From Reclinomonas americana ATCC 50394 (Eukaryota), in the NCBI GenBank assembly GCA_048213135.1, contig PS015105.1:53638-111282 (forward strand): a stretch of 57,645 nucleotides of DNA, given 5' to 3'. This document shows positions 5,401 to 55,014 of this stretch, piece by piece. Both the position numbers and the translations under genes were made by a program. Each line of letters begins with the position of its first letter. Within the stretch, counting starts at the first letter, position 1. The notes beneath the pieces were generated by a model. The model did no database searches, was not told the origin of the DNA, and worked only from the letters and a program-made list of their open reading frames with translations.

Positions 5401-7131
5401 GGCAGTGGCTCACGTCAAGGGCTTTGCGCGCAGCACGTCGTCCGACGGCTCCAGCAGCGACAGCAGCGATGATTCGGATTCGTCAGAAGAGGAATCGGAC
5501 TCGGACGACGATGATGATGAGGAGGAGGAGGACGAGGAAGAGGAGGACGAGGCAGAGCAGCAGCAGCAGCAACCTGGTGGTGCCAATAGGGTGAGTTCAC
5601 CGGTGTGAGTGTGGTGAACGCGAGGGGTGTGTCATCATCGGCTCAAACAACTGTGGATCAGGCTTCGGCGACCGCTGAGGCCTCTCGGTCTGCCGCTCCG
5701 AGTGCCTCTGGCACGCCGAGTTTGTTATCATCATCGGCGCGGCAGTCGCCGCCATGTCACCGGCGGCGCTGGTCGAAGAGGTCGCGGGCTTTGAGCGGTA
5801 CACTCGGGGTTCTAGTGTGCCACTTAATACTGGTGATGACGGCTTGTTGTCCGCGGTGGATGTGGCTCGTCACCTCATCTGCTGACTGCGCTCTCCTCTC
5901 CTTCCTTCCCCACACATGCATTTTGTTGCTGCTCCTGCGACAGAGAGTGGGGATGATGCCGATATGGTGATGGACGTGGATGGACGGGGAGCTAATGGGC
6001 TCGACGTGTCTGCGACGGGCACCGGTGCGCATCATCATGACGGTTCACCGTCGGCGCTCGGAGGCATCACTGCTGCTGTGCAAGATGGAGAGGCTGGGAG
6101 TGCTGCTCCCGCCGTCGGCGACGCAGAGGCTGTTGGCACCGAACTCGACTCTTTTACCTGGGCGCAGCTCGGTCAGGAGACGCCTGAGCAGTCGTCACCG
6201 TCGCCATCGCCAGCCGTCGTCGGGCACTCCGTGGCTCCAAGCGGCACCGATTTGTTCTCGCAGTTCAAGGAGATTGGCGAACAGCAGAAGCAGCGGGTGC
6301 GTGTTTATTTTGACTGGCGACACGCTGCTCCATACGCGCGCGAGCTCACTCTCCCCTTACTCGTGTGTGTCAGGCTGAGGAGCGGCAGCAGTTCCAAGAT
6401 CGGCTGCAGCGCGAGCGTGAAGAGCGCGAGCGCAAGCGCAAGGAGGATGTGGAGCGCGAGCTGCGAGAGGCGCGGGAAGCCAAGGTGCGTGNNNNNNNNN
6501 NNNNNNNNNNNNNNNNNNNNNNNNNNNNNNNNNNNNNNNNNNNNNNNNNNNNNNNNNNNNNNNNNNNNNNNNNNNNNNNNNNNNNNNNNNNNNNNNNNNN
6601 NNNNNNNNNNNNNNNNNNNNNNNNNNNNNNNNNNNNNNNNNNNNNNNNNNNNNNNNNNNNNNNNNNNNNNNNNNNNNNNNNNNNNNNNNNNNNNNNNNNN
6701 NNNNNNNNNNNNNNNNNNNNNNNNNNNNNNNNNNNNNNNNNNNNNNNNNNNNNNNNNNNNNNNNNNNNNNNNNNNNNNNNNNNNNNNNNNNNNNNNNNNN
6801 NNNNNNNNNNNNNNNNNNNNNNNNNNNNNNNNNNNNNNNNNNNGTGAGACACTTCCACATCCCGCCTGCACGTGCCGCCGGTGATGTCGGCGATGGCGTG
6901 CAGCCGCAGCAACCAGCAGCGGGATCAGGGGCAGCCTCGGCAGCAGCCGCGGCACCCGAGGGTGAGGATGAGGCGGTGGTGGGTTCGAGCAGCGGTGGTG
7001 TGGAGTCTGCATCGCAGGCCACCTTCCGCCGCCGCAGTGTACCGTCGCTGGAAGCAGAGGAGGACGATGGAGAGGACGATGATCGGGCGTCACTGCTCCC
7101 TCGACGCGACGCGCCTGCATCAAGATTATGA
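2425..7131 (+). CDS. BET/GTE-family bromodomain and extra-terminal (ET) domain protein, multi-exon; start uncertain, two internal gaps
   Basis: Bromodomain FEKPVNPVALNIPHYADMIKHPMDLGTV...FSADVRLVWDNCITFN (about 3250-3530). ET domain REMDMEEKRRLTNRIGRLP...VVDIDSLPAETLRKLEAYV (about 4140-4330). Ser/Asp/Glu-rich tract and a C-terminal charged coiled coil. Introns splice in frame. Confidence 0.92.
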
Positions 7132-7402: not shown

Positions 7403-10253
7403 TCAAGGCAACGATTCGGCCACAAGAGGTGCGACTGCGGCAGCATTGCTGCCGTGGTCATCTTCGTGGCCATTGTGGTGATGATGATGATGATGATGGT
7501 GCTCGAGGTGGTGATCGAGTGGCTGTGGATCCTCCTCATCCTCCTCTTGCTGCTGTTGATGCTGGTGGTGCTGCTCTTCATGCTCGACACCGGCGTCCTC
7601 AATCGCCGCCGTCACCGTCGCGGCATCAGCGGCCACCTCGGCGGCGGCATTGTCGTCGTCGTCGTCGTCGTTGTTACCGGGCATCGGCTCATCCGCCTCA
7701 GCAGCCTCGTGCGAGTCGTCCTCCATCAACACACTACCGCCCATGTCCTCGTGACCCTCGGCGGCACTCGCGTCGCTACCCGGCGCCCCATTGACAGCCG
7801 GTGCATCGCCACTGCCCATCGTCGACATTTCGCGATGGAAATCAACACCCATCAAGCCGGCAGGAAAGCCACCACCAAAGCTCGACGCATGCGGATCGAA
7901 TGACATGAGTGTGGTGAAATCAAGGTCGACCGTTTTCTCCGCCTGCCCATGCAAAAGTTANNNNNNNNNNNNNNNNNNNNATCCACGTCGTCTGCAAGGC
8001 AGCGCAACCCGTCAGTGTCTGTGTGTGAGTTGTTACGCATTCCGCAGTGTGTACACAAAACCTCGTGGAACATTGTCGGCGTCCCCACCGTCGGCTGCTT
8101 GCGCATTGTTGTTCACCAGCACGTTGTTTTCGTCAAACGGATTCCATTGCAGCGGTGCTCCTCTGCGCATCAGCCAGTCAGCAGTGCACAGACGCAAAAA
8201 AACGACAATCACTCTGCACGCGTGACGAACTCGTCAACGAGGACTGGGGCCGGTGGAATCGTAATGTACGAGGGTCTCGGGCGGAAAGTCCAGCCGACAA
8301 CCACAAACACCACCAGGCCGAGTGCCTGCTCCACAGCCTCGGAGAGGAACTCTGAGCTCGATCGAGTCAGTAAGGGGAGAGAAAGAGAGAGGATCGATCA
8401 CGTTGGAACGTAACCTTGCCGCCACGAGAGAATGGAGAAGCGAATGAAGACGAGAAAGATGGGAACCACCAAGTAGGAGAGGAAGGCCCAGCGGAAAGCA
8501 CTGTGACAGGGAGAGAGTGAGCGGACGACTTGTGGCACGCTCGGCATGAATACTCCGGTGCACACAACGTAAACAACCGCAGGCGAGCCACCAACTCCAT
8601 GCGCAGTTCCACCCACGCCTCCCCTGTGATCATGCTGCGTAACCGCTGGATGTTGGTGTTCATCGTCACCAGGATGCCAAAGGTGATGAGGAAGCGAATG
8701 ACGTTGAATGAGAGCTGTTGCGACGAGGAATGACCGTCAGTGCACCAGTGGTCACCCGTACAGTGAGGCCACACACTCGCTTACCATGTAGGCTGGACAC
8801 AGGTTCGGTTCGCGGCACAACGCATTCAAGATCTGGAACACCACGTATAACATAAAGGCGGCCCAGAACAGTTGATTTTCACGCGCACTGAGCAGCGGCC
8901 GTGTAATGCTGTAGCCTGTGTTGCGAAGGCATATGAGTGGGTGAGGTGCATGGCAGAGAGGTGACGCAATCTCGTTGCGCGACGAACCCATGGCTGTGAG
9001 GAGCAAGAACGCCAGAAACATGGTGTTCGAGACGATGACCAGCAGCTGCGATGCATTGCTACGGACTGGATGTGAGGCAAGGAGAACAAAAGTACGCATG
9101 TGCACAGGCGATTAAAGAAAACGCAACGCAATGAGAGTGTGATCATCGCCGGTGCGTGAGAGCGACACCAGCGCCCAGTAGGAGGTGATCATTTCGAAAA
9201 ACTTGAGGTACACGGAGAGGGTGAAGATTTGGTGGATTTTCAGCAGATGTTGCCGCTCTCGCATGTATACCGTCACCCACAGGAACGTGAAGATGAGGTA
9301 CACAAAGGCCAGCGTCTGGAACGTGCGGAGCAGCGGTGCCATGTCCAACGACAAGTGTGATCCCTTCGAGTCCACAAAATTGATTACGCCCTGCACTCCA
9401 ACACGATGAGTGGCGACGGCGACAGCGGCCACAATTACGGTACGTGCCACACCTGCACATCCAAGGCCACTCGATCGCAGTTCATGATGAAAAGCGTGTA
9501 CTGCTCGAGCGAATGCACAATGCCAGTGAACTTGATCTTCTTCACCAATGTTCCCTTGACAAGCTCAGCCGGCTGGTCAAAGTAGAAGCGCTATGCGTGC
9601 CACAGTTGCCGTCATCATCACCATCATCAAGCACGGAGAGACACGACAGAAACACACACACACACACACACCAGTGCGGCAGGCGTATCGCAAATCGATC
9701 TCTTCTCGTACAGTTTGATGGCCTTGAGTGAGAGCTGCGCCAGCATGGTCAGCCAAGGTACCACCACCACCACCACCACTCCGACTCAACACATCAACGC
9801 ACCCAGTCAGCATACGTGAACGAGACCACAGCCAAGTGCGGAGATCGCTCTTCGGGAGTTGTCTCCTACCGCATCGTCGCATGACAGAGAATCAGCACAC
9901 ACAGAGAGAGCAACGGAGCCAATAAGCACACTGCGCTCTGTGTCTCTCTCTCACTCGCTCACCAGCAGCGCCACTGACAACTCGCCAAAGATTCGTGATC
10001 CCGGGTCCAACCCAAACGCCTTGGGGTACAGTGGATACACGAATGTCGAGTTTGCCTCAAACTCTACCCAACACACCACATTAGCACACACACTCACTCA
10101 CTCACGAGCGCACACACGCACACACACACAGAGTCGCCAACACACACACTCACCGAGGTCGACATTGTGTGAAATGGCGTCGACTGGCGTGGCTAACCTG
10201 ACAAGCATGAGCTGCACGACGAGCGCACATGTCAACACGCATAATCGCCTCAT
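7403..10253 (-). CDS. GOST-family (lung seven-TM, GPR107/GPR108/TMEM87-like) membrane protein
   Basis: Signal peptide MRRLCVLTCALVVQLMLV. Lumenal domain with QYTLFIMNC, then SHLSLDMAPL...LLKIHQIF and LLLTAMGYSITRPLLSARE. Several hydrophobic helices and an acidic/His-rich C-terminal tail. Confidence 0.8.
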
Positions 10254-16399: not shown

Positions 16400-18905
16400 A
16401 TGGACGGAGAGGCTGAGGAGCGCCCGGTGAGACACGCGCCTCTCACTCGCCCTCCCTCTCTCCCCTCGTCTCTCACCTCTCCTGTCTGTGCATGTGCAGT
16501 CGGGGCGCGAATCCGCTGCTGAGCTCTTGCACAGTGCGCGTGAGCGCGCGTCGCCCGAGAACGGTGGAGTGGTCCTCGGGGCGGCTCCCACCGCGGCTGC
16601 ACCCTCGCAGGTTCCTCTCCGACTGTGCACTCTTGTGATGGCACCACTCCCTCTCACTCGCCGCGCCCTCCCACAGTCTGGGCGCGAATCCGCTTCGGAG
16701 CTCTTGCGCAGTGCGCGTGAGCGCGCGTCACCCGAGAATGGTGGAGTGAACCTCAGGGTGGCTCCCACCGCTGCTGCGCCCTTGCAGGTTCCTCTTCGAT
16801 TGTGCACGCTTGTGATGGCACCTAATTTGTTTAATCTCACTCACGGAGTATTGCGTGACAAGCAGGAGGATGACGAGCCGGAGGAGAATCGTGTCGGCCT
16901 CGTGTCACCCAATGACGTGTTGATGTCGTATGGCGCCACAGACCACATGCAAGAGGTGAGCGTCTCTCCACTGTCATGATGTGCAGTGTGCGCTCAAATG
17001 ATGAACCAACCATCGTGTTCGGCCTTGTAGCACGCCACTTTTCTCGTGTGTTTCGTCAACACACTGTCGGGCTCGCGAGGTGGCAGCACCATTGGTGAGG
17101 CGGTGTGCACAATGGCGGCGCTTGGAGCCACAGGGTGCTCATAGAATAGATGCAGTTAAGCGGCTTGAAGACTTGCACGGCAAGCACTGCGAGGTCAGGG
17201 TATTCGACTTGGCGCACCGCGCTGATAATGGCTGCTTTGAGTGGCTCGAAGAGCACGCCGGCGAAGCAGGATTGCGCATTTTGGTGTGCGGTGGCGATGG
17301 AACCGTGTCATGGGTGCGTACCCACTCGTTTCCCAATCCAAGCAAGTCGTTGCTCTTCCTCAACCTGCTTGCAGATCGTGAACCGACTGTCGTCGTTGGA
17401 TGCACACCGGCGCTCTCCAGTGCGTCTTGTTGTTTTTTTTTTTTGTTGATGCCGTCGTTGACTGCACGCCACTGACACACGTTCCAGATCGCCATCATGC
17501 CCCTCGGCACCGGCAACGACTTGTCACGTTCACTCGGCTCTGGACCTGGTGAATCCGCCTCCTCCAGTGTGGAGCCATACGTGATGCACGGATCGCATGG
17601 GCGTGTGGTTCCGCTCGATGTGTTGCGTCGGCGAGCCGCCGTATTGTTCTGCGCCTATACTTTTTTACTCAACACTGTGATGACAGATGGCGAGTGCGCA
17701 TTCGACATGTCGACGGCTTCACTGTCGAAGGTTGCTTTGTTCTCCTACTCGTTTTCTTCGCTCTCATCTGTCTACTGCTGACATGTGGCCGCGTTGCAGA
17801 GCGGCAGTCATGGGACTGGTTGGAGGAGCCCGATGCGCAGGCCACAGGTTCATTTGCTCGGGCACAGACCACTGGACAGGAGGTGCGTGGTGAGGTGGCG
17901 CTGCAGTCGTTTCTGTTCTCCAACTCCCCGTATTACATGCAGTCGTTCCTCATGACAAACTACTGGAGTATTGGTGAGTGAGTGAGTGAGTGAGCGAGGA
18001 TGTGAGGAAGATCTGCTGAAAACTTTCGGTGCAGGTGTCGACGCGAGGACATCACAAATGTTTCACGAGCATCGTGAGGGTGGTGGATGCTGCACAAGTC
18101 TGAGATGTTGCAACAAATTGTGGTGCGTATCTGTGGTTGTTGTCAAGTGCGAGTGGGTGATCTCGAGAACATAACACATGTTTCACAGGTACGGATTGTT
18201 CGGCCTGAAGTTGTGCTGCTGCTCGAGACAGCGCAAGATTGCCGACCTGCTCGAATACTTTGAGGTGAGAGTAGAGAGTGTCTGTCCTGCTGTTGTGTTG
18301 GGCTGACGGCCGCTGTGTCGCTGCAGGCCGATGGTGAAATGATGGACATACTGGACTCGTTGGAGACCCTCATATTTGTCAACATTCCGAGCTATGCCGC
18401 AGGTACTTACTTCTCGTGTCCGCTGAGTATCATGGCTGTCACTCAAAGCTGACGCAATACTGCAGGCACGAAGTTGTGGAATCTGCGTGGCGTTGATGAG
18501 CAGGTATGTCGAGCTGTGAATCTGTGAGTGCGATGTGCCTTGGTCGGTGACGTGATTCGTGTGCGCCTGCAGTTCGACGAGCAGCACATTGGCGACGGTC
18601 GCCTGGAAGTCCTTGGTGCCAATGGAGTGGCACACCTGGTCCGTTGCTGTTGCCTGCATAAACTGTTCAATCCCACAGCTCACTCTGCTTTGGCCGTGTC
18701 ACAGTTGGACATTCGCACTGGCTGTCGTCACCCAATCAAAGTCGCGCAGTGCAGGTCATACCGCCTCGTGCTGGGCGGCGACTGCTGTATGCAACTCGAT
18801 GGTGAGCCTCGCCGCTCCGGTCCCTGCCAGGTGGCGATTGAGCACGTCGGCGTGCAGAATATGGTGGAGTTTCCACCAGAGCACACCGCATCTTGCTGCT
18901 GCTAA
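16400..18905 (+). CDS. Diacylglycerol kinase (catalytic + accessory domains, no C1 domains seen)
   Basis: FVNTLSGSRGG, RILVCGGDGTVSW, MPLGTGNDLSRSLG, MTNYWSIGVDA, NKLWYG, NIPSYAAG, DGRLEVLG and MQLDGEP. Ends ASCCC*. Confidence 0.94.
16500..16822 (+). repeat. Tandem 177-bp duplication (111-nt exon plus intron 5' part) within the DGK gene
   Basis: 16500-16610 and 16677-16787 are near-identical, each flanked by AG and GTTCCTC. Confidence 0.92.
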
Positions 18906-18958
18906 TAATCATGGCACCCAATGGCGTCGTGCTGCGGATCAAATTTATGTATCAACGT

Positions 18959-23128: not shown

Positions 23129-26100
23129 TCACATGGCTAGCCGCCGTTTGGAGGACGGTCGACCAGCACTGGACGACGGCGAATGCGCAGTCATATTCAC
23201 GTCGGTGATGGTGGCAGCCGCCAGTGCCGACGGCAAGCCCTTGCCTCGTCGTTTCGGAGTGCCATCCGAAACCGGCGTCACCACCGCCGCTGCTGCAGGT
23301 GGTGGCGACGAAACATGTAGTGGAACTGGCAAGCCACCGTCAAGTGGCGGCAGACTCGCCATCAACACGTCCGGTGACTCACCCGGCGCCGCGGGCCATA
23401 CAGGCAACGGCGGTAGTGGTGGAATCGTCGACGTGGCCGACGAGGCCGACGACGATGATGATGACGACGACAGCGCATCGGCTCCTCCAACTGTAGTGGT
23501 TGTTGTGGTCGTCGTTGTCGTTGTCGTTGTGCTGTCGTCACCATACCGAATGTCGCTCCGATCAATCACCGGCATGCACGGTCGTGCGGGCGGCACGGCC
23601 AGATGAAGAAGTGAGTACGGCGCGCCGTAGTTGACCGAATCCACCTCCGACGTCGGCAGCGACGACGCCGCATGTCGATGTGTGCCCGTTGCCACCGGCA
23701 CAGCCGGCACTGCCCCACCAGGTGGGACAATGCCGGCGGCCAGCATCGCAGCATGTCGCGCTTTCCGCCTCTTTTCTTGCATCTTGAGAAACGCCTCGTA
23801 GGCAGCCTTCTCCCGTCTCTGCCGCACACCATGTGCCTTCACGTACGACAGCAGCTCTGGGTCGTCGGCCAGCAGCTCCTGCAGTGAGACCTCCTGCACC
23901 GCCTGAGCTGCAGTCTCTGACTCGACCACGGTCGCCACCTCTGCTGCTGCTGCTGCTGCAGCCGCAGCCGCCGCCGCTGCCGAAACCGTCGCCATTGGTG
24001 TGAACTCGGATTCGCCAGCATTGTGCATGGTTGCAGTCGTCGTCGACGCAGTGCGTGCTGCAGTGGTGTCATCCTCGTCCAGCTCGCCGTCCAACAACGA
24101 GTCGTCCTTGGTGAGGTGCTCGTCCAACATGTCGGAATCGAGCGAGAACGGCGGTGGTGAGAACCAGTCGTTGGGCTCCTGCGACGACGGCGTGTCAATG
24201 TCCATCGGTGGCGAGCCACCGACCCCCGTCGAGATGGGTNNNNNNNNNNNNNNNNNNNNNNNNNNNNNNNNNNNNNNNNNNNNNNNNNNNNNNNNNNNNN
24301 NNNNNNNNNNNNNNNNNNNNNNNNNNNNNNNNNNNNNNNNNNNNNNNNNNNNNNNNNNNNNNNNNNNNNNNNNNNNNNNNNNNNNNNNNNNNNNNNNNNN
24401 NNNNNNNNNNNNNNNNNNNNNNNNNNNNNNNNNNNNNNNNNNNNNNNNNNNNNNNNNNNNNNNNNNNNNNNNNNNNNNNNNNNNNNNNNNNNNNNNNNNN
24501 NNNNNNNNNNNNNNNNNNNNNNNNNNNNNNNNNNNNNNNNNNNNNNNNNNNNNNNNNNNNNNNNNNNNNNNNNNNNNNNNNNNNNNNNNNNNNNNNNNNN
24601 NNNNNNNNNNNNNNNNNNNNNNNNNNNNNNNNNNNNNNNNNNNNNNNNNNNNNNNNNNNNNNNNNNNNNNNNNNNNNNNNNNNNNNNNNNNNNNNNNNNN
24701 NNNNNNNNNNNNNNNNNNNNNNNNNNNNNNNNNNNNNNNNNNNNNNNNNNNNNNNNNNNNNNNNNNNNNNNNNNNNNNNNNNNNNNNNNNNNNNNNNNNN
24801 NNNNNNNNNNNNNNNNNNNNNNNNNNNNNNNNNNNNNNNNNNNNNNNNNNNNNNNNNNNNNNNNNNNNNNNNNNNNNNNNNNNNNNNNNNNNNNNNNNNN
24901 NNNNNNNNNNNNNNNNNNNNNNNNNNNNNNNNNNNNNNNNNNNNNNGGCCGGTCGCCACGGGTACTGACCCAGTAGTGTCGCCGACACCAGCGGCCGTGA
25001 GGCGGAGCCCTCGACGCCATCATCGAGTGCCACCGTGTCGAGCCGCCCAAACTTGCTCTCGTCGTCGTCCTCCTCCCCGACGGCCTCCATGCTCACATCA
25101 CCCGTGGTCAGCAGTGGCGACGATGGCGGCGGTGCCAGTCGCCACGAAGGAGTCTCGACAGCATACGGCAGCGATCTGGAGACCTCCGACACCGGCAGCA
25201 GATGTGGCGGCAGCTCCACACACGCAGCCTCTGCCACAGCATGCGCATTTGCCGAATGACTGCCTGACGAGGTCGCCAGGAGCGCATTGTGCACGACAGC
25301 CGGAATCGACCGCGTCAGGACCACATTCGTCGTCGGCGTCACGAGTCGCGAGTCGGTGCGCAGCTGTCGCGCAGTGGTCTGATCCACCGGCAGCATACCA
25401 GACAGGAAACGGCGACCGACACACGGCGCCGTCGGCGGCACAAACGACGGGGTCGAGAGCGCCAGTGCAGTCGGTGCGCCCGGCACGTCGTGTCTTATCA
25501 AGTCGGGCAGCTCAGAGCGCGCGCTGGCGGCCCACATGAGCGCCGACAGCGACACACTGCGCAACACTGACGTGGCCGGCAACACGGTGATGGCCCCCTG
25601 CGGCAACGACGACGGTGATCCGACAGCCGGACCGCAGTTGGCCACCGCAGCCATGGCGGCGGCGGCGAGAGCGAGACGACCGCGTGTCGCCCGCTGACCC
25701 TCAGCAACGGGGGAATTCGGTGCCTCGCCGCCATCAACAGTGATGAGGTAGAGACGGTGTAGGGTGGACTGTGCGGCCGCCATCGATGCCAACCATTCAC
25801 GAATGTACGGCGACACGGCCCGCTTCTTCTCCGCCGTTTGCAGCTAAAGGTGCGGAGTGCGTGAGCACGGCTGAGGACAAAGAGGAAACAAAGCATCTCA
25901 TCTGAAAAACTCGGCACTGACCTGCAGACGTGCGGCACACCGCGAGCAACAACCACCGGTCTTGGAGTAGCGCAGTCGAATGGCATGCAGGAGCTCTTGG
26001 TCGACATCGAGGCCGAAAAACAGAGTGACATCGTCGTCCGGCAGCACACTCGCCGCCTCGGTGGCGGCCGTCGATAGCGGTGACACCAGCATGCCGGCAG

Positions 26101-32329: not shown

Positions 32330-33174
32330 NNNNNNNNNNNNNNNNNNNNNNNNNNNNNNNNNNNNNNNNNNNNNNNNNNNNNNNNNNNNNNNNNNNNNNN
32401 NNNNNNNNNNNNNNNNNNNNNNNNNNNNNNNNNNNNNNNNNNNNNNNNNNNNNNNNNNNNNNNNNNNNNNNNNNNNNNNNNNNNNNNNNNNNNNNNNNNN
32501 NNNNNNNNNNNNNNNNNNNNNNNNNNNNNNNNNNNNNNNNNNNNNNNNNNNNNNNNNNNNNNNNNNNNNNNNNNNNNNNNNNNNNNNNNNNNNNNNNNNN
32601 NNNNNNNNNNNNNNNNNNNNNNNNNNNNNNNNNNNNNNNNNNNNNNNNNNNNNNNNNNNNNNNNNNNNNNNNNNNNNNNNNNNNNNNNNNNNNNNNNNNN
32701 NNNNNNNNNNNNNNNNNNNNNNNNNNNNNNNNNNNNNNNNNNNNNNNNNNNNNNNNNNNNNNNNNNNNNNNNNNNNNNNNNNNNNNNNNNNNNNNNNNNN
32801 NNNNNNNNNNNNNNNNNNNNNNNNNNNNNNNNNNNNNNNNNNNNNNNNNNNNNNNNNNNNNNNNNNNNNNNNNNNNNNNNNNNNNNNNNNNNNNNNNNNN
32901 NNNNNNNNNNNNNNNNNNNNNNNNNNNNNNNNNNNNNNNNNNNNNNNNNNNNNNNNNNNNNNNNNNNNNNNNNNNNNNNNNNNNNNNNNNNNNNNNNNNN
33001 NNNNNNNNNNNNNNNNNNNNNNNNNNNNNNNNNNNNNNNNNNNNNNNNNNNNNNNNNNNNNNNNNNNNNNNNNNNNNNNNNNNNNNNNNNNNNNNNNNNN
33101 NNNNNNNNNNNNNNNNNNNNNNNNNNNNNNNNNNNNNNNNNNNNNNNNNNNNNNNNNNNNNNNNNNNNNNNNNN

Positions 33175-40565: not shown

Positions 40566-43500
40566 CTATCTAGGGTGGTGGTGATGCTGCAGCTGCTTCT
40601 TTTTCGAGTGCTCCAATATGAATGCGAAGTCCTCGGCCACAGCAGTGTATCGTGAAATGCGTCCACCGTCGCCTGCGTGGCCTCCCACGGACAACACTCG
40701 GCACACAACAGGGGCCGTCACACCGTGCTGCTGACGGGCAGCTCGCAAACGTGCCACGTACTTGACTGGATTCCACGTCGGCACTCGCGCATCGTTCACA
40801 GCCGACACGACGAGCACTGCCGGGTGTGCCATGCTGTCACACAGGCATGTCAACGAAAACAACATCTCACCAGTGAATTCAAGAGCAGAAGGTGCATACC
40901 GCTGTTCAGGGGAAGCCGACCACCTATGCACACTGCTGTCAATGTTCTCGTAGGGACTGTACGAGGCCACATAGTCGTAATCCATCTGGTTGTTCTCCAC
41001 ATCGCCCCATTCCTGGTTTCAGCACATGCAGTGAGCGGTGCGGGGAGAGGAGGGGCAGTGAACACATTGTGGACCTCCGTGTCAATCGAAGAAATGGCAT
41101 CCTTGTGCGACGTCATGCTGGTGAGAACGTCCACAAACGGAGCCTTCAGCACGGCACTCCGAAACAGGTCTGGTCGCATGTTGATCGACGCCGCTGTGAC
41201 AACAGATCGTCAGACGGGGAATGAGAGGGAGGTAGAGGGGGAGGGAGTCGCCGCGAACCAACGAGCAGGCCGCCGGCACTCATACCCCACGCAGCTAGGT
41301 CACCCTCTGCCGCATACTTGGACTGCTGCAAGTGTGCGGCACAGGCCACGAAATCGTGAAACGAATTCATCTTGTTGTGCAGCTTGCCGTTCTTGTACCA
41401 CGACTGTGAGAATTCACCACCACCACTGCGCACAAGCACTGTCAGAATGCAGAAGCAGAGAGAGTGTGCTAAGCAACCTACCGCACAAGGGCTACCGCCA
41501 CAATCCATCCACGGTCGAGCAGGCTGAGGTAGCCTGGATCGAAATTCGTGTCGGCCGAGATGCCGTACGCACCGTAGCCACGCAGGAATGTCGGGTTGCT
41601 GTTCACCATCACTTGTGAGTGAGACAAGAATCGCGTGAGACGTGGCAGTACCAAACAGACCCGTCAACCAGGTCGCGTAGGCTCCTGCGGTAACCCACAA
41701 GAGTCGGCACTTGCACACCGTCGTGCGACGTCGCATGCACGACCTCCAGGGTGTACTCGGAAAAATCAATTTGCCGCTGCCCGTCTGCGCCACAGTCCAG
41801 TGATTCGTTGCGGGGGAGGGGAAGAGAGAAAACACACTTGTGCATACCAAAGAGCTGCACTCGATCCAGCTGCCGACACTGACCAGTGCGCAGGTCCAAG
41901 TCACACGTGGTGAGTGGATGCACCGGAGACGAGTACGTGAAGCGGAACACCGCATTGTCGACATCCTGTGGCACATCACGTGAGTACGAACGAACACAGC
42001 GAGTGGGAGAGAGAGACAACAAAAAATGCTGTGCCAGTACCGCATTGGCTCCTGGCTCCACGGCCACGGCTCCCTCCGGCAACTCAGCCTCCACCAGCTG
42101 ATATCGCGACGGCTGCAACACGCGGCTCGCACCAGCAGTCGGCACAAGTGCCTGATGGGGAGCAGCAGCTTCGGGTGAATTCGGCCGAATGTTAAACCAA
42201 CGCCTGCGTACCGACGATGTGCGTGTTGGTGGTGAGGGCTGTTGGGTGGAGGCACCACCACCAACATCGTGCAATACGTGCACGAACGCCCGACCGCCAC
42301 TTCTGCCAAAGATCACCACCGACGACTGCACAACCAAGCGTCAGCATTCAAGGCCCGCAGATTGCGCGCCAGACATCCCACCGAAAACACGTGAAAGCCA
42401 TGCGGACACTCGCCCGGCAGCGGTCTGTACACATCGGTCCATGCGTGGCGGTCGGCGATCTTGTCGAGTGGGGCGCACGACAACACAAAGTCGTCTGGCG
42501 AGCCGCCGGCGAAGTTTTGCAGAATGTAGAAGAGGCCCTGATCGAGAAAGGGGAAAGGGTTAGGGAGGGAAGTGAGGGAAGGGAGAGGGAAGGGAGAGGG
42601 AAGGGAGGAGAAGGGAGAGGGAAGGGAGGAGAAGGGAGGGAAGGGAGGGAAGGGAAGGGAGAGGGCAGGGAGGGAAGGGAGGGAAGGGAGGGAGGGGAAG
42701 GGAAGGGTGTGGGGAGGGAGGAAGGGAGGCAAGGGAAGGGAGGCAATTGAGAGAAGGGAGGGGAAGGGAGGGAAGGAAGGGAGGGAAGGGGAAGGGAAGC
42801 GAAGGAAAAGGGAAGCGAGGAATGAAGGAAAGCAGGCAGGATGGAGGAATGAACCAAGGGTGGAAGCAAGGAGGTGAAGGCAGCATGATCGACAAACAGA
42901 GAGGAGTGTGTGAGAGATTACATGACTCTGCGCAGACGCACTTGGTAGTGGTCCACCAAAGTGACCTGGTCTTGCTTCTGACCCGGCACTGCTGTCAACT
43001 GCGTTGGCTGTTGCGTCGGGGCGACAAACACGGTGGACTCGCTCCGACTGGCCAGTGTCAAAACAATGAACTCCTGCGATGAGCAGAGAGGTCACCAATT
43101 GTCTCTCAGCGTGCACAAGTGTCATCACACAAACCTTGTCGCGCGACACATGCACGTCCACCAGAGTGGATGGATCGGCCGCATACAGCAGGCGCACATC
43201 GGTTGCCTGCGGCGTTCCCAGCACATGGACCAGCACCTGCAGTGACGACAGCATGAGAGAGTGTGTGTGATTGAGCGAGGACAGTGAGAGACAAGTGCTG
43301 CACCTCGGAAGGTCGGCGGTTCTCGTCGATTCTCGTGTACACCACTCTCTCGTGGTCGAGGTACTCAAAGGCAAGGACGTTGCGCAGCTCACAGTGCAAC
43401 ATGCCATCAACCACGTTGCGCACGTACATGTCATACGTCTCCGTACCGTGGGCATCCAGCAGGAAACCAAAGTGACTGCCGGCGATCAGCACCGCTTCAC

Positions 43501-44149
43501 ACCATTCCCCTTCCGCTGCACTTACCGATCGTCCGGCGACATGTGCGTGCTCGTTCCCATGCCCACATACGCCGCATTCAACGTCGTCGTATTAAGCAGC
43601 ACCTGTTCCGCACCACGCAGCCGCCGTGGAGGCACATCACCAACACGATACGGTCGCCGACAGTACACCGACGTGTTATGCCCCTCGTCGACACGCTCAT
43701 AGTACCAGTAGCCACGACACAGCTCCGCCGTCGATGCGTGCGTCGGCGACAAGCACTCACGCATCTCCTACGCACACACGCACACGAGCAGTCGTCGTCA
43801 GCAGCAGGCAGCAGCGCGCAGACAACTCCACGAGTGGTGGAATGCACATTGAGCAGCTGTCGCTTGAGTGCATCGTACGACGCTCCCTGACTGTGTGCGT
43901 ATTGATTCTCTGCGGCAATGTGGCTGCGCAGGAGGTGTGCTTGTTGTGCGTCTTGCATCCATGCGTAGGGATCGATGCGGCGTCGTGTGCCGCTGAAGAG
44001 CGATTCACTGGCGACAACACGGGCGATGGGTGGTGCAACGCGACTGTGTGTGAGTGTGAGAGGGAGGGCAGAGAGGGAGGTGAAGGGGGAGGGTAGGGAC
44101 ACACGTGCCTGCGCAGGAGAGCGCGGACCATGCCGCCCACTCCACTCAT
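40566..44149 (-). CDS. Oligopeptidase B / prolyl oligopeptidase (peptidase S9A)
   Basis: DPYAWM...AENQY, GYGAYG, RGGGEFSQSWY, KMNSFHDFVAC, nucleophile GMSAGG, PFVDVL, YSPYENI, Asp in NDARV and His in GGH. Confidence 0.95.
42555..42875. repeat. Purine-rich GGGAA/GGAG microsatellite inside an oligopeptidase intron
   Basis: Visible degenerate (gggaa)n tract. Confidence 0.9.
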
Positions 44150-44228
44150 CGCAGAGCAGACAGTGTCGCGAGGCTCGCGATTTTGAATGTCCACTACACA
44201 TAAGCCTCGCTGCTCAACGCCACTGTTG

Positions 44229-45500
44229 ATGAGTGTCCCCAGCAGCAGCAGCAATCGGAGCCGTGGCAGTGGCAGAGGTGGAAGCGGAAGCAGTGGCCAT
44301 GGTTCAGGACCACAACTTACCGGAGATGACGGCAATGACGAAGATGTCGTCATTCCAGTTCTTAAGTCTCTGGGTGCACTACTGCGTCAACTGTCGGCCC
44401 ACCAACATCTTGCCGATCATGCCAGGAAATTCAGGGGCATGGTGTGTGTGTGATTGTGGTGCAGTCATGTTGCATTCCGATACGTACCAGTCAGTCACAC
44501 TTTCCGCACGCACATGCGCAGATGTGGGGTCTCGCAGTGCTTTGGACCCAGACAACCCGGTTTTCACTGTCGCGCTGCCCAACATTCCAGTGTGATACTC
44601 CAGAAGCGGAAGAGGTGGACGATTTCGATGAATCCGAGTGCTGCTTTATCCTTGCCAAGTGTGGAGGAAGTGTGCGCATGCGTGCTCTCTTCTTGCTCAG
44701 GTGGTCGCTCGATTCCAGTTACTAACTAACATGACCTTTAGAATGGTTACGTCCTGCTGCGGTACTGCCAGTACATGGCGGGTCTGCTATCGCAGTTCGA
44801 GCGACCACGCTCTGTCAACGAAACTTCTTGGAAGGAAGTTTTTGGCAGGCTCAATCCAGGCCTTCATGTCGTGGCAACTTTTGCATCACTTGGGCCTCCG
44901 CCAAGGGACGGTCTCACGTCATCGCATGCATGCCACTCTCCAGAGAACAAGCGTTGCATCAACCCAAGTCACTTCAGCTGGCAATCTCTTTACGCCAACA
45001 AGCAACGTGAGTCACATCACGATGAGGAGGACTGTGAAGCTGCCGACGAGCCGTGCGATCCACGCTGTCGGTTCGCCGGACCCGTCCCACTGGTGGTCGA
45101 GGAATCTCCAGCGACAGCGAATAAGGAGGTCCGACAAGCCCTCCTTCGCCGACTGGAATTCTTGCGCGAAGAAATGGAGCGCATCATGTTACGAGGCATT
45201 GTCTTTCCACCACCGGCAGTAGTCCTTTGTCGTTGTTTTTCACTCACCGCAACATGCGCATTCAGAGCGCGGACGATGGAGAGCGCTCGGGAAGCGCGGA
45301 TCGCCGAATTCGAGACCTTGCTTGCTGATTGTGTTGCCAGGGCGTTTAGACGTCGGGTTACCCGAGATGGTACAATCGCACGAGCGTTGGTCACGTACAC
45401 TGTGAACGATTTTCATGCCCGTGTGGTCAACCCGCTGCTGATCACGCTGGGTACACTCGAGTTTTCGGAGAGTACAGAAGAGGAGGAGGTGGTCAACTGA
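44229..45500 (+). CDS. His-Cys-box (His-Me finger, I-PpoI-like) endonuclease-domain protein with spliceosomal introns
   Basis: Exons 44229-44441, 44522-44671 and 44742-45500 (phase-0 GT-AG introns). Motif ECCF...NGY...LHVVA...GPPP...SHACH...CINPSHFSWQSLYANKQR...C...CDPRC. An upstream in-frame ATG lies at 44187. Confidence 0.8.
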
Positions 45501-45822
45501 TATCAGGACTCTCCCGTCTTCAGAATCCACGGTCAGTGGTCGACTGCCGCGTGGGATGTAGATGGAGAGGGTCAATGTAACCTGACTGAGTGATGCATGC
45601 AAGCATGTACATATGCATGTCTTGCAGAGTGGTTCTTCGAGCAATAACCTCTGGTGGCAACGGGGCGTGATTGACAGAAATCACCTCGATTGTCAAGAAT
45701 TGGCTCCTTACCGCACAATGACCACAACGCGTACGAGCCAGGAATTTATTTTATTATTCCTATTCCAAGCATGTTGTGTGAGTCGATCAAGTGGTCGGTG
45801 GATCACACCTCTCACCACAAGC

Positions 45823-46658
45823 ATGAGGTGAGCGACGAGCATCTCTTCCTTCTCCTCTTTTCTTCTCTCACTCACTCACCCTTCCCCGCTACCCTCAGCG
45901 CCACCACCACCAAAGATCTGCACCTGTCACACGAGTTCCACGCACCGGGGCTCAAAGCACAGCACATTTACGATGTGCTCACTGATGGAGAGAAGCACGG
46001 GCGCATGATTGGTGCTCCAGTGACGCAAGAGGGACCGGTGTGTGATGCCTGTGTGTGTGAGAGAGAGACAACAGGGAATCATTCGCGATCTCATCATCGT
46101 GTGGAGTGCAGGCCGCAGTCGGTGTGGCGTACACGGCATGGGGAGGGTACATTGACGGGTCGTACACGGAGCTGAGCCCGCCGCACCGCATCGTCTCGCA
46201 GTGGAAAGTGAGTGCGCTGCTTTGCCAGTTTTTCCGAACACAGCAACTCACGTGCACTCATTATCACACGCAGGGACGTTGCGCAGTCGCAGCACGCTGC
46301 GCATCCCCCAGCTCGCCGTTCACCAGTCACTGACGTACATCTGTGTGCTTCCGAGCAGGTGACTTTGCAGAGTGGTCGCAGGTGGTGTACACGCTGACGG
46401 AGACGGCGGCGGACACGGTGCACACGCAGCTGGATCATCTCGGCGTGCCGGCATCGTGGGGTTTGTGCTCCCTGCAGTCCTCTGCGAGTGCCTCGCTCAC
46501 TATCTCCGCAACGCAGAGCATGGCTGGGACGCGCACTACTTCCAGCCGTTGCAAAAGCTCGTTGCTTTGCTCTCTGTCTCGCGATGAATAATGATGGTGA
46601 AGCGCTGACTTTGTCACTCTGGCACAGGTACCTGACGGAGGAGCTCGGCAGCAAGTAA
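45823..46658 (+). CDS. AHSA1/SRPBCC (START-like) domain protein
   Basis: IYDVLTD, VGVAYTAWGGYIDGSYTELSPPHRIVSQW, HLGVP and GWDAHYFQP, typical of the Aha1 C-terminal-like domain. The start could be 45718. Confidence 0.85.
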
Positions 46659-46745
46659 CAGCCCACCACCGTAATCCTCTCCACGCCATCAGTGCCAATG
46701 CACCACAATCATGGTCGTCGTCGTCGTCGTCGTCATCCCGGAACT

Positions 46746-48075
46746 TCATTCACACAGCACATCGTAATGACCGGGCTTGTACAACAGTGTGACCACAGGC
46801 ACTGCTGGTGGTCGTGGAGGTGCTGCTTCTGCTGCTCCTGCTGCAACCGGTGGTGCATCGGCTGCGGCCGCCCTTGCCTCCTCGATCGGATCCACACCCG
46901 AGTACACATGCGTAACCACGTCGTTCTCCGAGGCGTCGAGGTACTCGACCCGGATGCCGAGTCGCAGACACCTTGTGAGAGCGATGATGTGCAGTTCCTC
47001 ACACTCGCGACCATTCACCTCCTGTGAATGCACCAAGAGTCAGCACACGTCTCCGGTCACAAACCACAAGCAATAACAATGATACACGCACCACTTCCTC
47101 GCGACAGTACTGCACAATCGAGCGACCGTTGGGCAAAAACGGCGCAAACTCCTCGGCATTCATTTGCAGGTAGGCCGAGATGAGGAAGCGCAGGTAGGTG
47201 ACAAAGTACTCGGAGATGTACGGCACACGGAAATCGGCAATCATCGCCTCCACCGTCAGCGTCCTCTCCAACACACCTGCACTCCCACGACAATCAACAA
47301 GTCGATCACCAAGCCTTACTTTCCCTCCGCACGCGTACCTCCAATCACCCGCATCACAGTCTCGTGGAAATCCTCGACCACAAAGTCGGCAAAGCCGGCG
47401 CCAATCAGGAAATTGACACTCTCCAACAGCGTGCTAAAGATCTGCTGCGTCAGTTCCCGATCGCCGCTCAGCAGCAGTCCCTCCAGCATGCCCACCGAGA
47501 ACCCACGCAGGAAGCAGTTGCCATCTGCACGTGTGGAAGGTCACACAAGGAATGCAGACACTCGATTGTCTTTTTTCCGCGTACACAGCTCACCGCCCTT
47601 GATCTTGCGCATGTGACGGTATCGCGCGGCCAGCGTCCTCACCTTGGCCTGCACGTACGGCACATCAGCATTGTAGTGCTCCAGCTCTCGAATGTCCATG
47701 CGATCGCTGACAAGAGGCATGTCGCGCAGCATTTCCTGCAACAGTGCGCGTTGCTGCTCAAACGTGCCTCCCATGCTCATCAACTTGAGGCACACGAAGA
47801 ATGTGTGAGTTATCGTCAGAGAGCAGTATGAGAGAGTGGAACTCACAGGTGATGAGGCGCCTGGTGGTTCTACTGCTGCTGCTGTGAGTGTGTGTGTGAG
47901 GAGAGAGATGAGAGGAGGTATTTCTGGCAGCGCACTCACCATCGGCGACTGGCGAGTCTGGCACCACCTCCTCGCCCTCTGGCACTACAGGAGGTGGTGG
48001 TGGTGGTGGAGGAGGAGGAGGTGCAGGCTGCTCTTGTGGCTGCTGTGCAGCGTACGTGTTGTCTCTCCGCACCAT
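46746..48075 (-). CDS. OTUB1: Otubain-family deubiquitinase (peptidase C65)
   Basis: RKIKG/DGNCFLRGF (catalytic Cys), FVVEDF, YLRFLISAYLQ, ECEELHIIAL, RVEYLD and LLYKPGHYDVL (catalytic His). Confidence 0.93.
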
Positions 48076-48116
48076 CACGTCAACAACGAAGTTGTCCTCT
48101 CACGTTCTTCACTTCG

Positions 48117-49327
48117 CTATGACATTGGCTTGCGAGCGTGACAGGCCCACAGCTTGGCGCCACTTTCCAGCACAATGTACTCGGAGCGTACCAGGAGCCA
48201 CTGCTGCTCGACGTGCGGACCGAATAGCGACGCGTGAGCACGTTCCGAACTGACGCCAGAAAACAGGAGAAACGAGCCGCCTGGTCGAAGGCATCGATGG
48301 ACGACGCTCACGGCTGCAAGAAAAAGAAGAAGGGAGAGGTGAGCGACGCTCCTCGACCGCGGGGGAAGGGAAGCGCGACGCACAGTCACGAATGATGGCA
48401 TCGTCGGCAGAAAAGGCGGTCCACAGAGCGTCGAGCCCGCCCTTGTCGAGCACCAGGTCGATCGATGCCTCGCGAAACACCAGGTCCTGAAAGCGAGAGC
48501 ACACGGCATCCACCTGCGCGGAGCGATCGGAGGCACGCTGCTGTCGTTGCGCCAGGAGCAGACCTGCACCAACAGTCAGTTCATGCAGTTTACTCGCCAA
48601 CGAGCGTTCCGGATCCGCACCACTCGCCGCAATGTCGGTGTTGATCACGTGCCCGCACCACGCCTCCTCGGCCAGCCGATGCCCGACATCCGACGATCCG
48701 GCGCCCATGTGCACGCACACCAGTGCCTCCGCGGCCTCCACGCTCGCCACAGCCGCCCGCACAAACGACTGCACAGCCTCGTAGCCGGCGTACCACTCGT
48801 ATGAGCGACCATTGCTGTCGACGTAGAAGCTCTCCCAGTACGCTGGCTCCACGAATGGATCGACGCCCGATCGCCACGCTTCGCGAGTGCACGCTCGAAG
48901 CAGCTCCGCACACTCGTGGTGGTCGCGCATCAAGGCCACTGCGCGCATGTTACGCCTCAGCCAGCGAGCAAGCCACAAACAGAGAGAACGCAACGAAAGA
49001 GTGGTGTCTGCCCGAATGCAGTCTCCGCCTCGACACATGACTCAAACAGACGCCAGTGTTGCCTCAACAGCTCGAGGCACTCTGTGTGTCCTTCGAAGGC
49101 GCACGCATGGATGGCGTTGCGATGCGTGGACGGGTCGAGGAACACGGACTCTGTGTGGCCAGTCAGCAGCAAGCGAGCGATAGGAGGAGATGAGAAAGAT
49201 GTCGACCTTGGCATTGTGCATCGTCCGGGTCAGTGGAGGAGAGCAGCTGGCTTATACACGCGACGTCGCCGACCTCGCAGGCGAGGTACAGCCGCTCACC
49301 CATCGCCGCGAGCGCAAACGAGTTGTC
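48117..49327 (-). CDS. Ankyrin-repeat + class I methyltransferase (EEF1AKMT4/METTL12/METTL13-like) fusion; 5' end uncertain
   Basis: Ankyrin-like LYLACEVGDVAC, NAIHACAFEGHTECLELL and GQTPLF/LALMRDHHECAELL, spliced in phase to YWESFY...YEWY, VHMGAGSS, INTDI, DLVLDKGGLDAL and LRPGGSF. Confidence 0.82.
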
Positions 49328-49431: not shown

Positions 49432-49655
49432 CTCTCTCTCTCTCTCTCTCTCTCACTCTCTCTCTCTCTCTCTCTCGTCTCGTCTCGTCGTCGTCGTCGT
49501 CGTACGTCGTACGTCGTACGTCGTACGTACGTACGTCGTCGTCGTNNNNNNNNNNNNNNNNNNNNCCGGCCGGTCCGTACCACCGACGACGAACCGACCC
49601 GACCACGTCGTACTCGTGTCGCGTTCGTTCGTCGGCGGCGACGTGTGTGTGTAGA

Positions 49656-53633: not shown

Positions 53634-55014
53634 ATGGCGGCGACAGAGGCAGCGGGCCCTCAGTCGCCCTCTCGCGTTATTCTATGGAAAGACCCCGTGT
53701 CGGGTGCCGAGGCGCGGCAACGACGAGTGATGATAACCCCGCGCGCGTTGCAGATTTCTCCGTTGTCNNNNNNNNNNNNNNNNNNNNNNNNNNNNNNNNN
53801 NNNNNNNNNNNNNNNNNNNNNNNNNNNNNNNNNNNNNNNNNNNNNNNNNNNNNNNNNNNNNNNNNNNNNNNNNNNNNNNNNNNNNNNNNNNNNNNNNNNN
53901 NNNNNNNNNNNNNNNNNNNNNNNNNNCGCGGAGGGAGGCGAGAGGCAAGAGGTGTTGTTGGAGCGAGCGGTGCAGGCGCATTGGTGGCAGTCGGTGTGGC
54001 ACATGCCGACGGCGTTGTGGGTGCGTGTTGAGAGAGAGAGCGTTCTCTGTGGTCTGTCGCTCATGCGTGGTTTTAGGTGTGTTACTGGACGGGTGTGTCG
54101 GTGCATGGGGGTGTTTTGGTGCTGTGTGCGCTGCTGGCGGCGAGTGGAATCTGCTTGCTGGCTGGCCTCGCCAACGCCCCAATGCTTCTGCTGGCGTACG
54201 CCATGGTGTCGTCGCTCAGTGCTGTCGGGTACACGATGTTTGGCGCGTTTGGCGATCAGCTGGTGAGTGCAGAACAAGGCGAGGGTGGCATACCTCCACA
54301 TATTCTCATGTGATAGGAAACTCGTAGTTGCTGGAGATCTGTTTCCTTGGTGCACTCGCTGCGCCGTGGTGGTCCACTGGCGTCTTTGCTTCGGGCACAC
54401 CGGAACTGTCGCGCATCGCGCAGTGGCTGTTTCGGTGGCTCTCGAGTCGATTAGCCGCTGGTTTGCATTCCCCCACTGTCTGATTTTTTTGTGGGCGCTC
54501 ACTTCCACTCCCACACAGCTCCGCTGATCGGCAAAGTGGCGGCGGCGCGATGCGCGCTCGACAATGCATGCGTGTGGAACGCGCTGGTGGCCACGAGGTA
54601 AGTCCGCGTCGCTGCATGAGCTCACTTGCGTGCCCGCTCACGGGTGTTCCACACTGCAGCGATCCTTCATCGCCACTGGCCAACGCCGCCGTCATGTGGT
54701 CGCTGACGCTGTTGCGTTGACAGTGCTGCCGGTGCAATCGATGTTTCCTTCTCGCTCACCCTCGTTGTTCATGCAGACCGCTTCTGCTCCTGATTCCACA
54801 CTTTGTGCCACAACGCGTCGCTGCATTGGCGGTGCTGGTGGACGCTGTCGCAGTGCAGCCGTCGCTACTGTCCATTCTGCGCGTTCTTGCTGCGTTGTGG
54901 TCACTGGACGACGGCGTGCTGCACGTCGTGTCGCCTCCGTGGTTGCGCAGCAAGTACGACGAAGTGTGCCGGAGATTAGATCAGCAACAGCAACAACAAC
55001 AACAACCACAATGA
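53634..55014 (+). CDS. Hypothetical multi-pass membrane protein, exon structure partly unresolved
   Basis: Hydrophobic segments VLVLCALLAASGICLLAGL, MLLLAYAMVSSLSAV and AALAVLVDAVAVQPSLLSILRVLAALW. Poly-Q end; internal gap. Confidence 0.5.

Follow-up and report, generated by a model that had tools for sequence, protein, structure and literature searches.

Can a nuclease gene of the His-Cys box type reside in a chromosome as an ordinary gene, outside ribosomal DNA (rDNA) and with introns like those of its host? The question is raised by positions 44229-45500 of the positive strand in a 57,645-base stretch of DNA from Reclinomonas americana ATCC 50394 (contig PS015105.1), hereafter the window, where a sequence-only reading, i.e., one made from the letters and their open reading frames (ORFs), had proposed a free-standing three-exon gene resembling homing endonucleases. 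Our results suggest that the gene is free-standing, chromosomal and long resident at this site, that 44742-45500 (+) is its main exon, and that its product joins a very divergent I-PpoI-type nuclease domain to a helical tail specific to its lineage. We assign a probability of about 0.6 to this reading, and the same to the gene being an expressed, resident nuclease gene. Since both its introns and its codon usage resemble those of the host (see below), we take it for the descendant of a homing-endonuclease gene that has long been resident here (fixed, perhaps domesticated), rather than for one that is homing now. By its sequence the domain can be likened to the His-Cys box endonucleases, yet it scores below the Pfam threshold and lies outside any rDNA group I intron.

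Exon 3, the main ORF (44742-45500, +), has 252 codons plus a stop and contains the whole His-Me finger domain together with the helical C-terminal extension; residue numbers such as C9, H62 and N86 refer to this exon. The His-Cys-box-like His-Me finger domain extends from C9 to C109 (44766-45068, +), as delimited by Pfam PF05551, by alignment with relatives and by the AlphaFold2 core, and we hold it to be very probably a genuine His-Me domain. The profile search and the structural comparison with I-PpoI that the sequence-only reading had proposed as checks both pointed to this superfamily. Pfam gave a single family at E<=1 for exon 3, zf-His_Me_endon (PF05551; E 3.4e-4, residues 57-109), although below the cut-off of the family, and all four PHROGs families at E<=1 were HNH or other endonucleases (best E 1.2e-5, an HNH endonuclease). 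NCBIfam yielded no family for exon 3 at E<=1, Pfam HNH_3 (PF13392) was not matched by it at the same level, and exons 1, 2 and 3 matched no further Pfam family at E<=1, with no NUMOD, AP2 or helix-turn-helix (HTH) modules. A phmmer search against all PDB sequences returned seven at E<=10, the top five of which were I-PpoI (E 0.012 with the whole of exon 3 and 0.0029 with its first 115 residues), and a profile that included the four relatives described below found I-PpoI in five of five matches (best E 0.0054). I-PpoI was the only PDB family matched, with zf-His_Me_endon and the PHROGs HNH families in weak agreement, so that the I-PpoI-like domain claimed from the letters held up.

The core motif LTSSHACHSPENKRCINPSHFSWQSLYANKQR (44913-45008, +), which phmmer alignments placed against I-PpoI residues 94-122, had one occurrence in the six-frame translation of the window. 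The equivalences, with the target residue first and I-PpoI in 1a73_A numbering, were S61=S97, H62=H98, C64=C100, H65=H101, C72=C105, N74=N107, P75=P108, H77=H110, W80=W113, Q81=E114, S82=S115, L83=L116, N86=N119, K87=K120 and R89=R122. In this 32-residue alignment S, H, C, H, C, N, P, H, W, S, L, N, K and R are common to the target and I-PpoI, and all the aligned catalytic or zinc positions of I-PpoI are retained save E114. The residues of the catalytic His-Me motif (H98, H110 and N119 of I-PpoI) are all present in the phmmer alignment, and C64, C72 and H77 align to C100, C105 and H110, which we take to be zinc ligands in I-PpoI. The general-base His, the metal-binding Asn and the zinc ligands that had been thought to be kept can thus be named as H62, N86 and the three aligned ligands. 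C9 aligned solely to the first Cys of the bacterial relatives, and H92/H93, C98, C105 and C109, present downstream of the helix, were aligned to I-PpoI by no tool, nor were the N-terminal DNA-reading strands of I-PpoI (R61/Q63/K65/T74) aligned to the target by any.

An exhaustive phmmer search of 1,835,955,588 representative proteins gave nothing at E<=1e-10, and four proteins reached E<=1e-3, with values of 1.1e-5 to 7.8e-4. Each of the four is a multi-repeat protein with HNH_3 and/or zf-His_Me_endon, and their identity to the target is 33-41% over 44-60 residues. C9, G14, G51, P54, G57, H62, C64, C72, P75, H77, S82 and N86 are invariant among the target and these relatives, and the C9...G14...FERPR series of exon 3 aligns with their CWxWxG...GRPR motif. 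The sequence-only reading had noted CCF...NGY ahead of the core; the junction of exons 2 and 3 (CCFILAKCGGS|NGY) was tried as the CWxWxG...GY motif and rejected as probably wrong, since the MAFFT alignment with the relatives puts that motif at C9-G14 plus FERPR, inside exon 3. We place the domain nearer to the His-Cys box group than to generic HNH_3 because SHxCH and WxSLxxNKxR are common to it and I-PpoI, and not to the four relatives.

Other searches gave no closer homologue. Among proteins of near length to exon 3 there were 668 candidates, none at E<=0.01, and the first 115 amino acids of exon 3 gave one candidate and none at E<=10. The 348 pattern matches to exon 3 in metagenome contigs and the 39 in viral contigs included no confirmed one, and a search of metagenome contigs for the syntenic locus with an oligopeptidase B exon gave 140 matches, again none confirmed. 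No paralogue was found in the window, where the best non-self tblastn match had an E of 0.16; this weak pair, at 18736-18934, was inspected and set aside, as it carries no His-Me motif. The nearest clusters in an ESM Atlas feature search (score 0.91, 149-150 shared features) had 67-274 members of 135-179 amino acids, 66-84% of them with PF05551, and were mostly eukaryotic (Ascomycota, Rotifera). We treat them as a lead only; the Atlas listing also indicates that protein databases hold many uncharacterised eukaryotic PF05551 proteins.

The predicted structure is consistent with the same family. Two AlphaFold2 models showed a core made of helix 41-50, strand 59-63, strand 78-82 and helix 83-100, with a predicted local distance difference test score (pLDDT) of 66-79 over residues 41-60 and 71-90 and of 54 for 61-70. 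H62 would lie in strand 59-63 and N86 in helix 83-100, i.e., in the beta-beta-alpha-metal arrangement. Foldseek searches against PDB placed I-PpoI chains at ranks 1-4 both times: in the first search the best E was 0.14 among 366 matches at E<=10, and in the second I-PpoI had E values of 0.14-0.32 and root-mean-square deviations of 3.3-3.6 Å over 39-47 columns, the next entry having an E of 3.4. We consider these matches of predicted models to I-PpoI supportive, not decisive. The C-terminal extension of about 140 amino acids (45072-45497, +) is predicted, with low confidence, to be helical, AlphaFold2 giving helices 123-150, 157-173, 177-203 and 211-238 at a pLDDT of about 45-65, and it belongs to no known family: it had no Pfam match, and an Atlas search of residues 111-252 gave no usable one. 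In a wide structure search of PDB with the full exon-3 model the tail dominated and drew generic helical matches only (Z <= 9.3, below the search's own caution level for helical folds).

Direct reading of the sequence showed that all the strings quoted for the three-exon model, and the boundaries of its two GT-AG introns, are present where the sequence-only reading had put them; both introns are in phase 0 and the spliced product has 373 amino acids. Exon 3 starts with NGYVLL and includes both LHVVATFASLGPPP and SHACHSPENKRCINPSHFSWQSLYANKQR. It is preceded by an in-frame TAG whose last base is 44741, eight codons before the C9 motif, and the first in-frame ATG of exon 3 is at 44775, downstream of that motif. 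An upstream exon is therefore needed, because the C9...G14...FERPR motif precedes this ATG. The AG at 44741 is the sole acceptor able to keep C9 in the product, and the acceptor of intron 2 is thus forced. Predicted intron 2 (44672-44741, +) has 70 nt and reads GTGCGC...TACTAAC...TTTAG, in phase 0, with TACTAAC about 15 nt ahead of the acceptor. Several fitting donors lie 60-81 nt upstream of 44741; the one at 44672 joins the best-scoring frame, whereas those at 44661, 44670 and 44682 would connect to the frame of ATG 44514 instead. The neighbour genes have 11 inferred introns of about 51-80 nt, with variable donors (e.g., GTGAGC, GTGCGT, GTGTGT and GTCTGT), CTCAC- or CTGAC-like (CTNAC-like) branch sites and YAG acceptors. 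The introns predicted for the target appear to fit this host pattern, and intron 2 resembles the 11 in length and signals.

Upstream of this point the model becomes less definite. Putative exon 2 (44522-44671, +) has 50 codons, begins with an ATG and ends in ...ECCFILAKCGGS; it is plausible, alternatives exist, and its first codon is another possible translation start. Putative intron 1 (44442-44521, +; 80 nt, GTGTGT...GCGCAG, phase 0) is uncertain, a (GT)5 run at this place offering donors in all three phases, and putative exon 1 (44229-44441, +; 71 codons with a low-complexity Ser/Gly start) is weakly supported. A 98-codon frame from ATG 44299 is also open, with a possible donor at 44446 in the (GT)5 run. 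The region 44187-44441 is open in several readings at once, probably from (AGC)n/(GGC)n-like repeats, and the antisense frame of the oligopeptidase B start is open up to 44386 (ORF 43757-44386, -), with an ATG at 44353, opposite putative exon 1. Within exon 3 we noted a candidate third intron, read from the sequence (45188-45265, +; in-frame, 78 nt, GTTACG...CACTCAC...TTCAG), whose splicing would drop 26 hydrophobic, Cys-rich residues from the tail; the codon score is positive in no frame across 45186-45266. The candidate shows a pyrimidine tract, CACTCAC as a branch-like site and CAG as its acceptor. If instead an intron of 65 nt began at 45201, the reading frame would change and the protein would stop after 20 further codons.

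Codon usage was scored with a log-odds model built from 1,127 codons of the oligopeptidase B gene, a bromodomain-BET ORF and an otubain gene of the window; leave-one-gene-out windows scored +0.117 ± 0.119 in frame and -0.347 ± 0.188 out of frame. Exon 3 had +0.101 in frame versus -0.241 and -0.282 in the other two frames, and reads as native coding sequence. For putative exon 2 the proposed frame was the best of six, yet its score was only -0.026. Putative exon 1 scored -0.128 in the proposed frame, like non-coding DNA, and +0.162 in the next. As a result the gene model stands in part: intron 2 is kept, with its forced acceptor and host-like signals, and exon 1 is not, given its negative codon score and the other readings that are open. 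The remark that the gene uses more A/T-ending codons than its neighbours proved correct, as the G+C content at third codon positions (GC3) was 0.567 in exon 3 versus 0.648, 0.670 and 0.670 in three neighbour genes (0.662 overall; Fisher p 0.0056).

The surroundings are those of a chromosomal gene. The window is eukaryotic nuclear DNA, with the bromodomain-BET ORF, an intron-split oligopeptidase B gene and an otubain gene, and the target occupies by itself an interval of about 1.35-1.6 kb with unrelated housekeeping genes on either side. It stands head to head with the oligopeptidase B gene, their start codons being about 370 bp apart if translation begins at 44522 and much closer with exon 1 (see below). 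Rfam gave no match at the gathering score in the 57,645 bases and none at E<=1 in 42000-47500, and neither rDNA nor a group I intron was found; no transfer RNA genes were detected, and no inverted or direct repeats bracket the gene in 42500-47500. These results agree with the earlier remark that no rDNA, group I core or terminal repeats are visible. The interval from the oligopeptidase B start to the next gene leaves no space for a transposase.

If the reading of a resident nuclease gene is right, two zinc sites would hold the beta-beta-alpha-metal fold, the first formed by C9/C64/C72/H77 and the second drawn from H92/H93, C98, C105 and C109. H62, at the end of the first strand, would activate a water molecule, and N86, on the helix, would hold a divalent metal (Mg2+) at the scissile phosphate. 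The helical tail may serve in dimerisation or in DNA contacts.

Several observations weigh against this reading. Each single match is weak, near or below family thresholds: zf-His_Me_endon scored 21.3 bits with a gathering threshold of 27 bits, neither Foldseek search gave a match at E<=0.001, and the Atlas recognition value of 2247 is below the level at which matches carry weight. The overall confidence of the AlphaFold2 models is poor (mean pLDDT 49.9 and 55.2) because the alignment held only five sequences. I-PpoI E114 is Q81 in the target, and the second zinc site and an equivalent of C41 were aligned to I-PpoI by no tool. The protein (1.84 billion), metagenome and viral collections yielded no orthologue, and hence no evidence of purifying selection. 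As read from the sequence, the 5' end of the gene is ambiguous and weakly supported, since alternatives to exon 1 compete, and with the proposed exon 1 the divergent start codons would be only 37-79 bp apart. The significantly lower GC3 would also fit foreign or decaying sequence.

The lower GC3, the absent orthologues and the ambiguous 5' end leave room for a silent relic, i.e., a decaying or silent remnant of an HNH or homing-endonuclease gene derived from an rDNA intron, a virus or a bacterium, with a frame still open by recency. We regard such a relic as unlikely, though worth serious attention: the third-position composition (0.567 versus 0.662 in the neighbours, p 0.0056), the lack of an orthologue or paralogue in the collections searched and in the window, the weak or absent coding signal of the upstream exons, the non-coding look of the 45186-45266 stretch and the multi-repeat HNH_3 architecture of the nearest relatives, unlike that of the target, would all suit it. 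It would account less well for a 252-codon frame that is intact and keeps the aligned catalytic and zinc residues, for an in-frame codon score typical of true coding sequence with both out-of-frame scores clearly negative, and for a first domain motif that requires a splice where a good branch site and acceptor are present. That the ORF and its motif arose by chance in GC-rich DNA, with no real feature behind them, seems to us scarcely credible. The window does contain 52 ATG-started ORFs of >=200 amino acids, many of them spurious, and the individual matches are near or below family thresholds, but four independent resources agree on one superfamily, every aligned functional residue is kept, the core motif is found once in six frames of the window, and the codon score is frame-specific.

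Two further explanations accept a real domain. An active, free-standing selfish homing endonuclease gene would cut an empty site between oligopeptidase B and the downstream gene and be copied in by repair. The intact catalytic residues, the solitary position between unrelated housekeeping genes, the atypical third-position composition and the lack of orthologues, as expected of a patchily distributed element, would fit this, and we nevertheless find it quite improbable: its borders show neither repeats nor duplications, the window has no second copy, and the native-looking codon usage and introns imply long residence. In addition, a poorly conserved intergenic site makes a bad long-term homing target, and to our knowledge every known His-Cys box endonuclease targets conserved rDNA sites. 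A non-catalytic derivative, with the His-Me finger used as a zinc-stabilised DNA- or protein-binding module in a regulatory protein, like Smad MH1, has a smaller chance still. Inactive His-Me derivatives usually lose the general-base His and the metal-binding Asn, and both are kept here; on its side are the Q at the E114 equivalent, the long helical tail that makes up more than half of exon 3, and the precedent of MH1, listed among the inactive His-Me finger groups in Jablonska et al. 2017 (PMC5714182). The expressed, long-resident nuclease gene remains the reading that we prefer.

The neighbours of the target were examined in the same way. The oligopeptidase B gene (40614-44149, -), divergent from the target, has an inferred ATG at 44149-44147, its start and introns being read from the sequence. 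Its identity, proposed in the sequence-only reading, was supported by tblastn with E. coli PtrB (high-scoring segment pairs from 44033 down to 40614, best group E 6.5e-26) and by Pfam Peptidase_S9 (E 2.7e-13), whereas the AHSA1-like identity proposed for the other neighbour was not, the ORF pieces giving no Pfam match at E<=0.1. A longer-protein search with the neighbour ORF 41146-42267 gave nothing at E<=1e-10, this ORF being a poor query with only about 57 coding residues. An imperfect, GGGAAG-like microsatellite, rich in purines and about 290 bp long (42546-42832), lies within the oligopeptidase B gene, where it is presumably intronic, and GA- and GT-rich tracts like it recur near exon borders. 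The next gene downstream of the target, a small one at 45772-46400 (+) with its start near 45772, contains no fewer than three short introns, with the donors GTGAGC, GTGTGT and GTGAGT. The second downstream neighbour is an otubain (Peptidase C65) gene at 46746-47800 (-), four ORF pieces of which matched Pfam PF10275 with E values from 2e-15 to 3.2e-3; it has three short GT-AG introns and converges on the small gene. Farther along, an open frame of 310 codons (48109-49041, -) bears a faint resemblance to class I methyltransferases (Methyltransf_25, E 0.058, a match below threshold). The window also contains eight runs of N, 3,377 bases in all (1458-2137, 4403-4996, 6492-6843, 7961-7980, 24240-24946, 32330-33174, 49546-49565 and 53768-53926), which are assembly gaps or masked stretches; one of them splits the bromodomain-BET ORF.

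How His-Cys box genes come to be expressed from a locus of RNA polymerase I has long been a puzzle. An ordinary-gene copy with host-type introns and codon usage would, if the resident-gene reading is true, show the fate of such a gene after escape from rDNA, and, if active, it would offer a new, very divergent nuclease scaffold with a specificity still to be defined. The strongest form of the claim, that this is the first working selfish, free-standing nuclear His-Cys box gene, with RNA polymerase II transcription, spliceosomal introns and an intergenic homing site, has in our opinion a slim chance of being right. A milder version, in which a domesticated His-Cys box nuclease serves as a host gene and shares a bidirectional promoter with oligopeptidase B, can be put forward tentatively.

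Compared with known systems, the target is closest to I-PpoI. Endonucleases of the I-PpoI group act as homodimers that cleave long semi-palindromic sites with 3' overhangs. In Jablonska et al. 2017 (PMC5714182), I-PpoI and the His-Cys box form group 12 of the His-Me fingers, and HNH_3 and the I-HmuI-like proteins form group 2. Like I-PpoI, the target has an S-H-x-C-H...C-x-N-P-x-H...W-x-S-L-x-x-N-K-x-R motif and a Cys/His cluster after the helix, where the second zinc site is expected; the I-PpoI group is described in PMC9587614 as having eight conserved His/Cys that form two zinc sites. According to the same source H98, H110 and N119 are the residues of the catalytic motif, S97 and E114 are group-specific, and I-DirI likewise departs at E114; the target keeps the S97 equivalent (S61) and replaces that of E114 (Q81). 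It is unlike I-PpoI in a 3-residue insertion between the SHxCH and C-x-NP elements and in its extra helical tail of about 140 residues, and unlike the I-PpoI group in lying outside rDNA and group I introns, with protein-coding genes at its flanks.

With the HNH_3 proteins the target has fewer features in common. C-x4-G...G-P-x-P-x-G...H-x-C...C-x-N-P-x-H...N is common to it and its four best relatives, and I-HmuI appeared at Foldseek rank 9 for the first AlphaFold2 model. Unlike the relatives, with 2-3 tandem repeats, it has a single nuclease unit, and unlike the HNH_3 group it has no Pfam HNH_3 match at E<=1 and none of the accessory NUMOD, AP2 or HTH DNA-binding modules that PMC5714182 reports for I-HmuI-like group 2. 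The eukaryotic PF05551 clusters were nearest in the ESM Atlas feature search, which is a lead only, and in contrast none of them was matched at sequence level at E<=1e-3.

In the open-access literature we found no description of a free-standing, intron-bearing chromosomal His-Cys box gene, the one chromosomal exception found in print being the nuclease of the KolobokP transposons (PMC9587614). In these DNA transposons of animals the nuclease has a DDD/E transposase as its neighbour, and long terminal direct repeats, which have inverted repeats of their own, flank the pair. KolobokP and the target are alike in having a His-Cys-box-type nuclease in chromosomal DNA outside rDNA; unlike KolobokP as described there, the target has the oligopeptidase B start (44149) on one side and the next gene (~45772) on the other, without transposon repeats in 42500-47500. 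Introns as such are not the novelty, because spliceosomal introns are already known in His-Cys box genes within rDNA introns, the I-DsqI gene having one of 47 nt (PMC9548176). Set against these sources, what is new in the target is its chromosomal, stand-alone setting and its unique tail.

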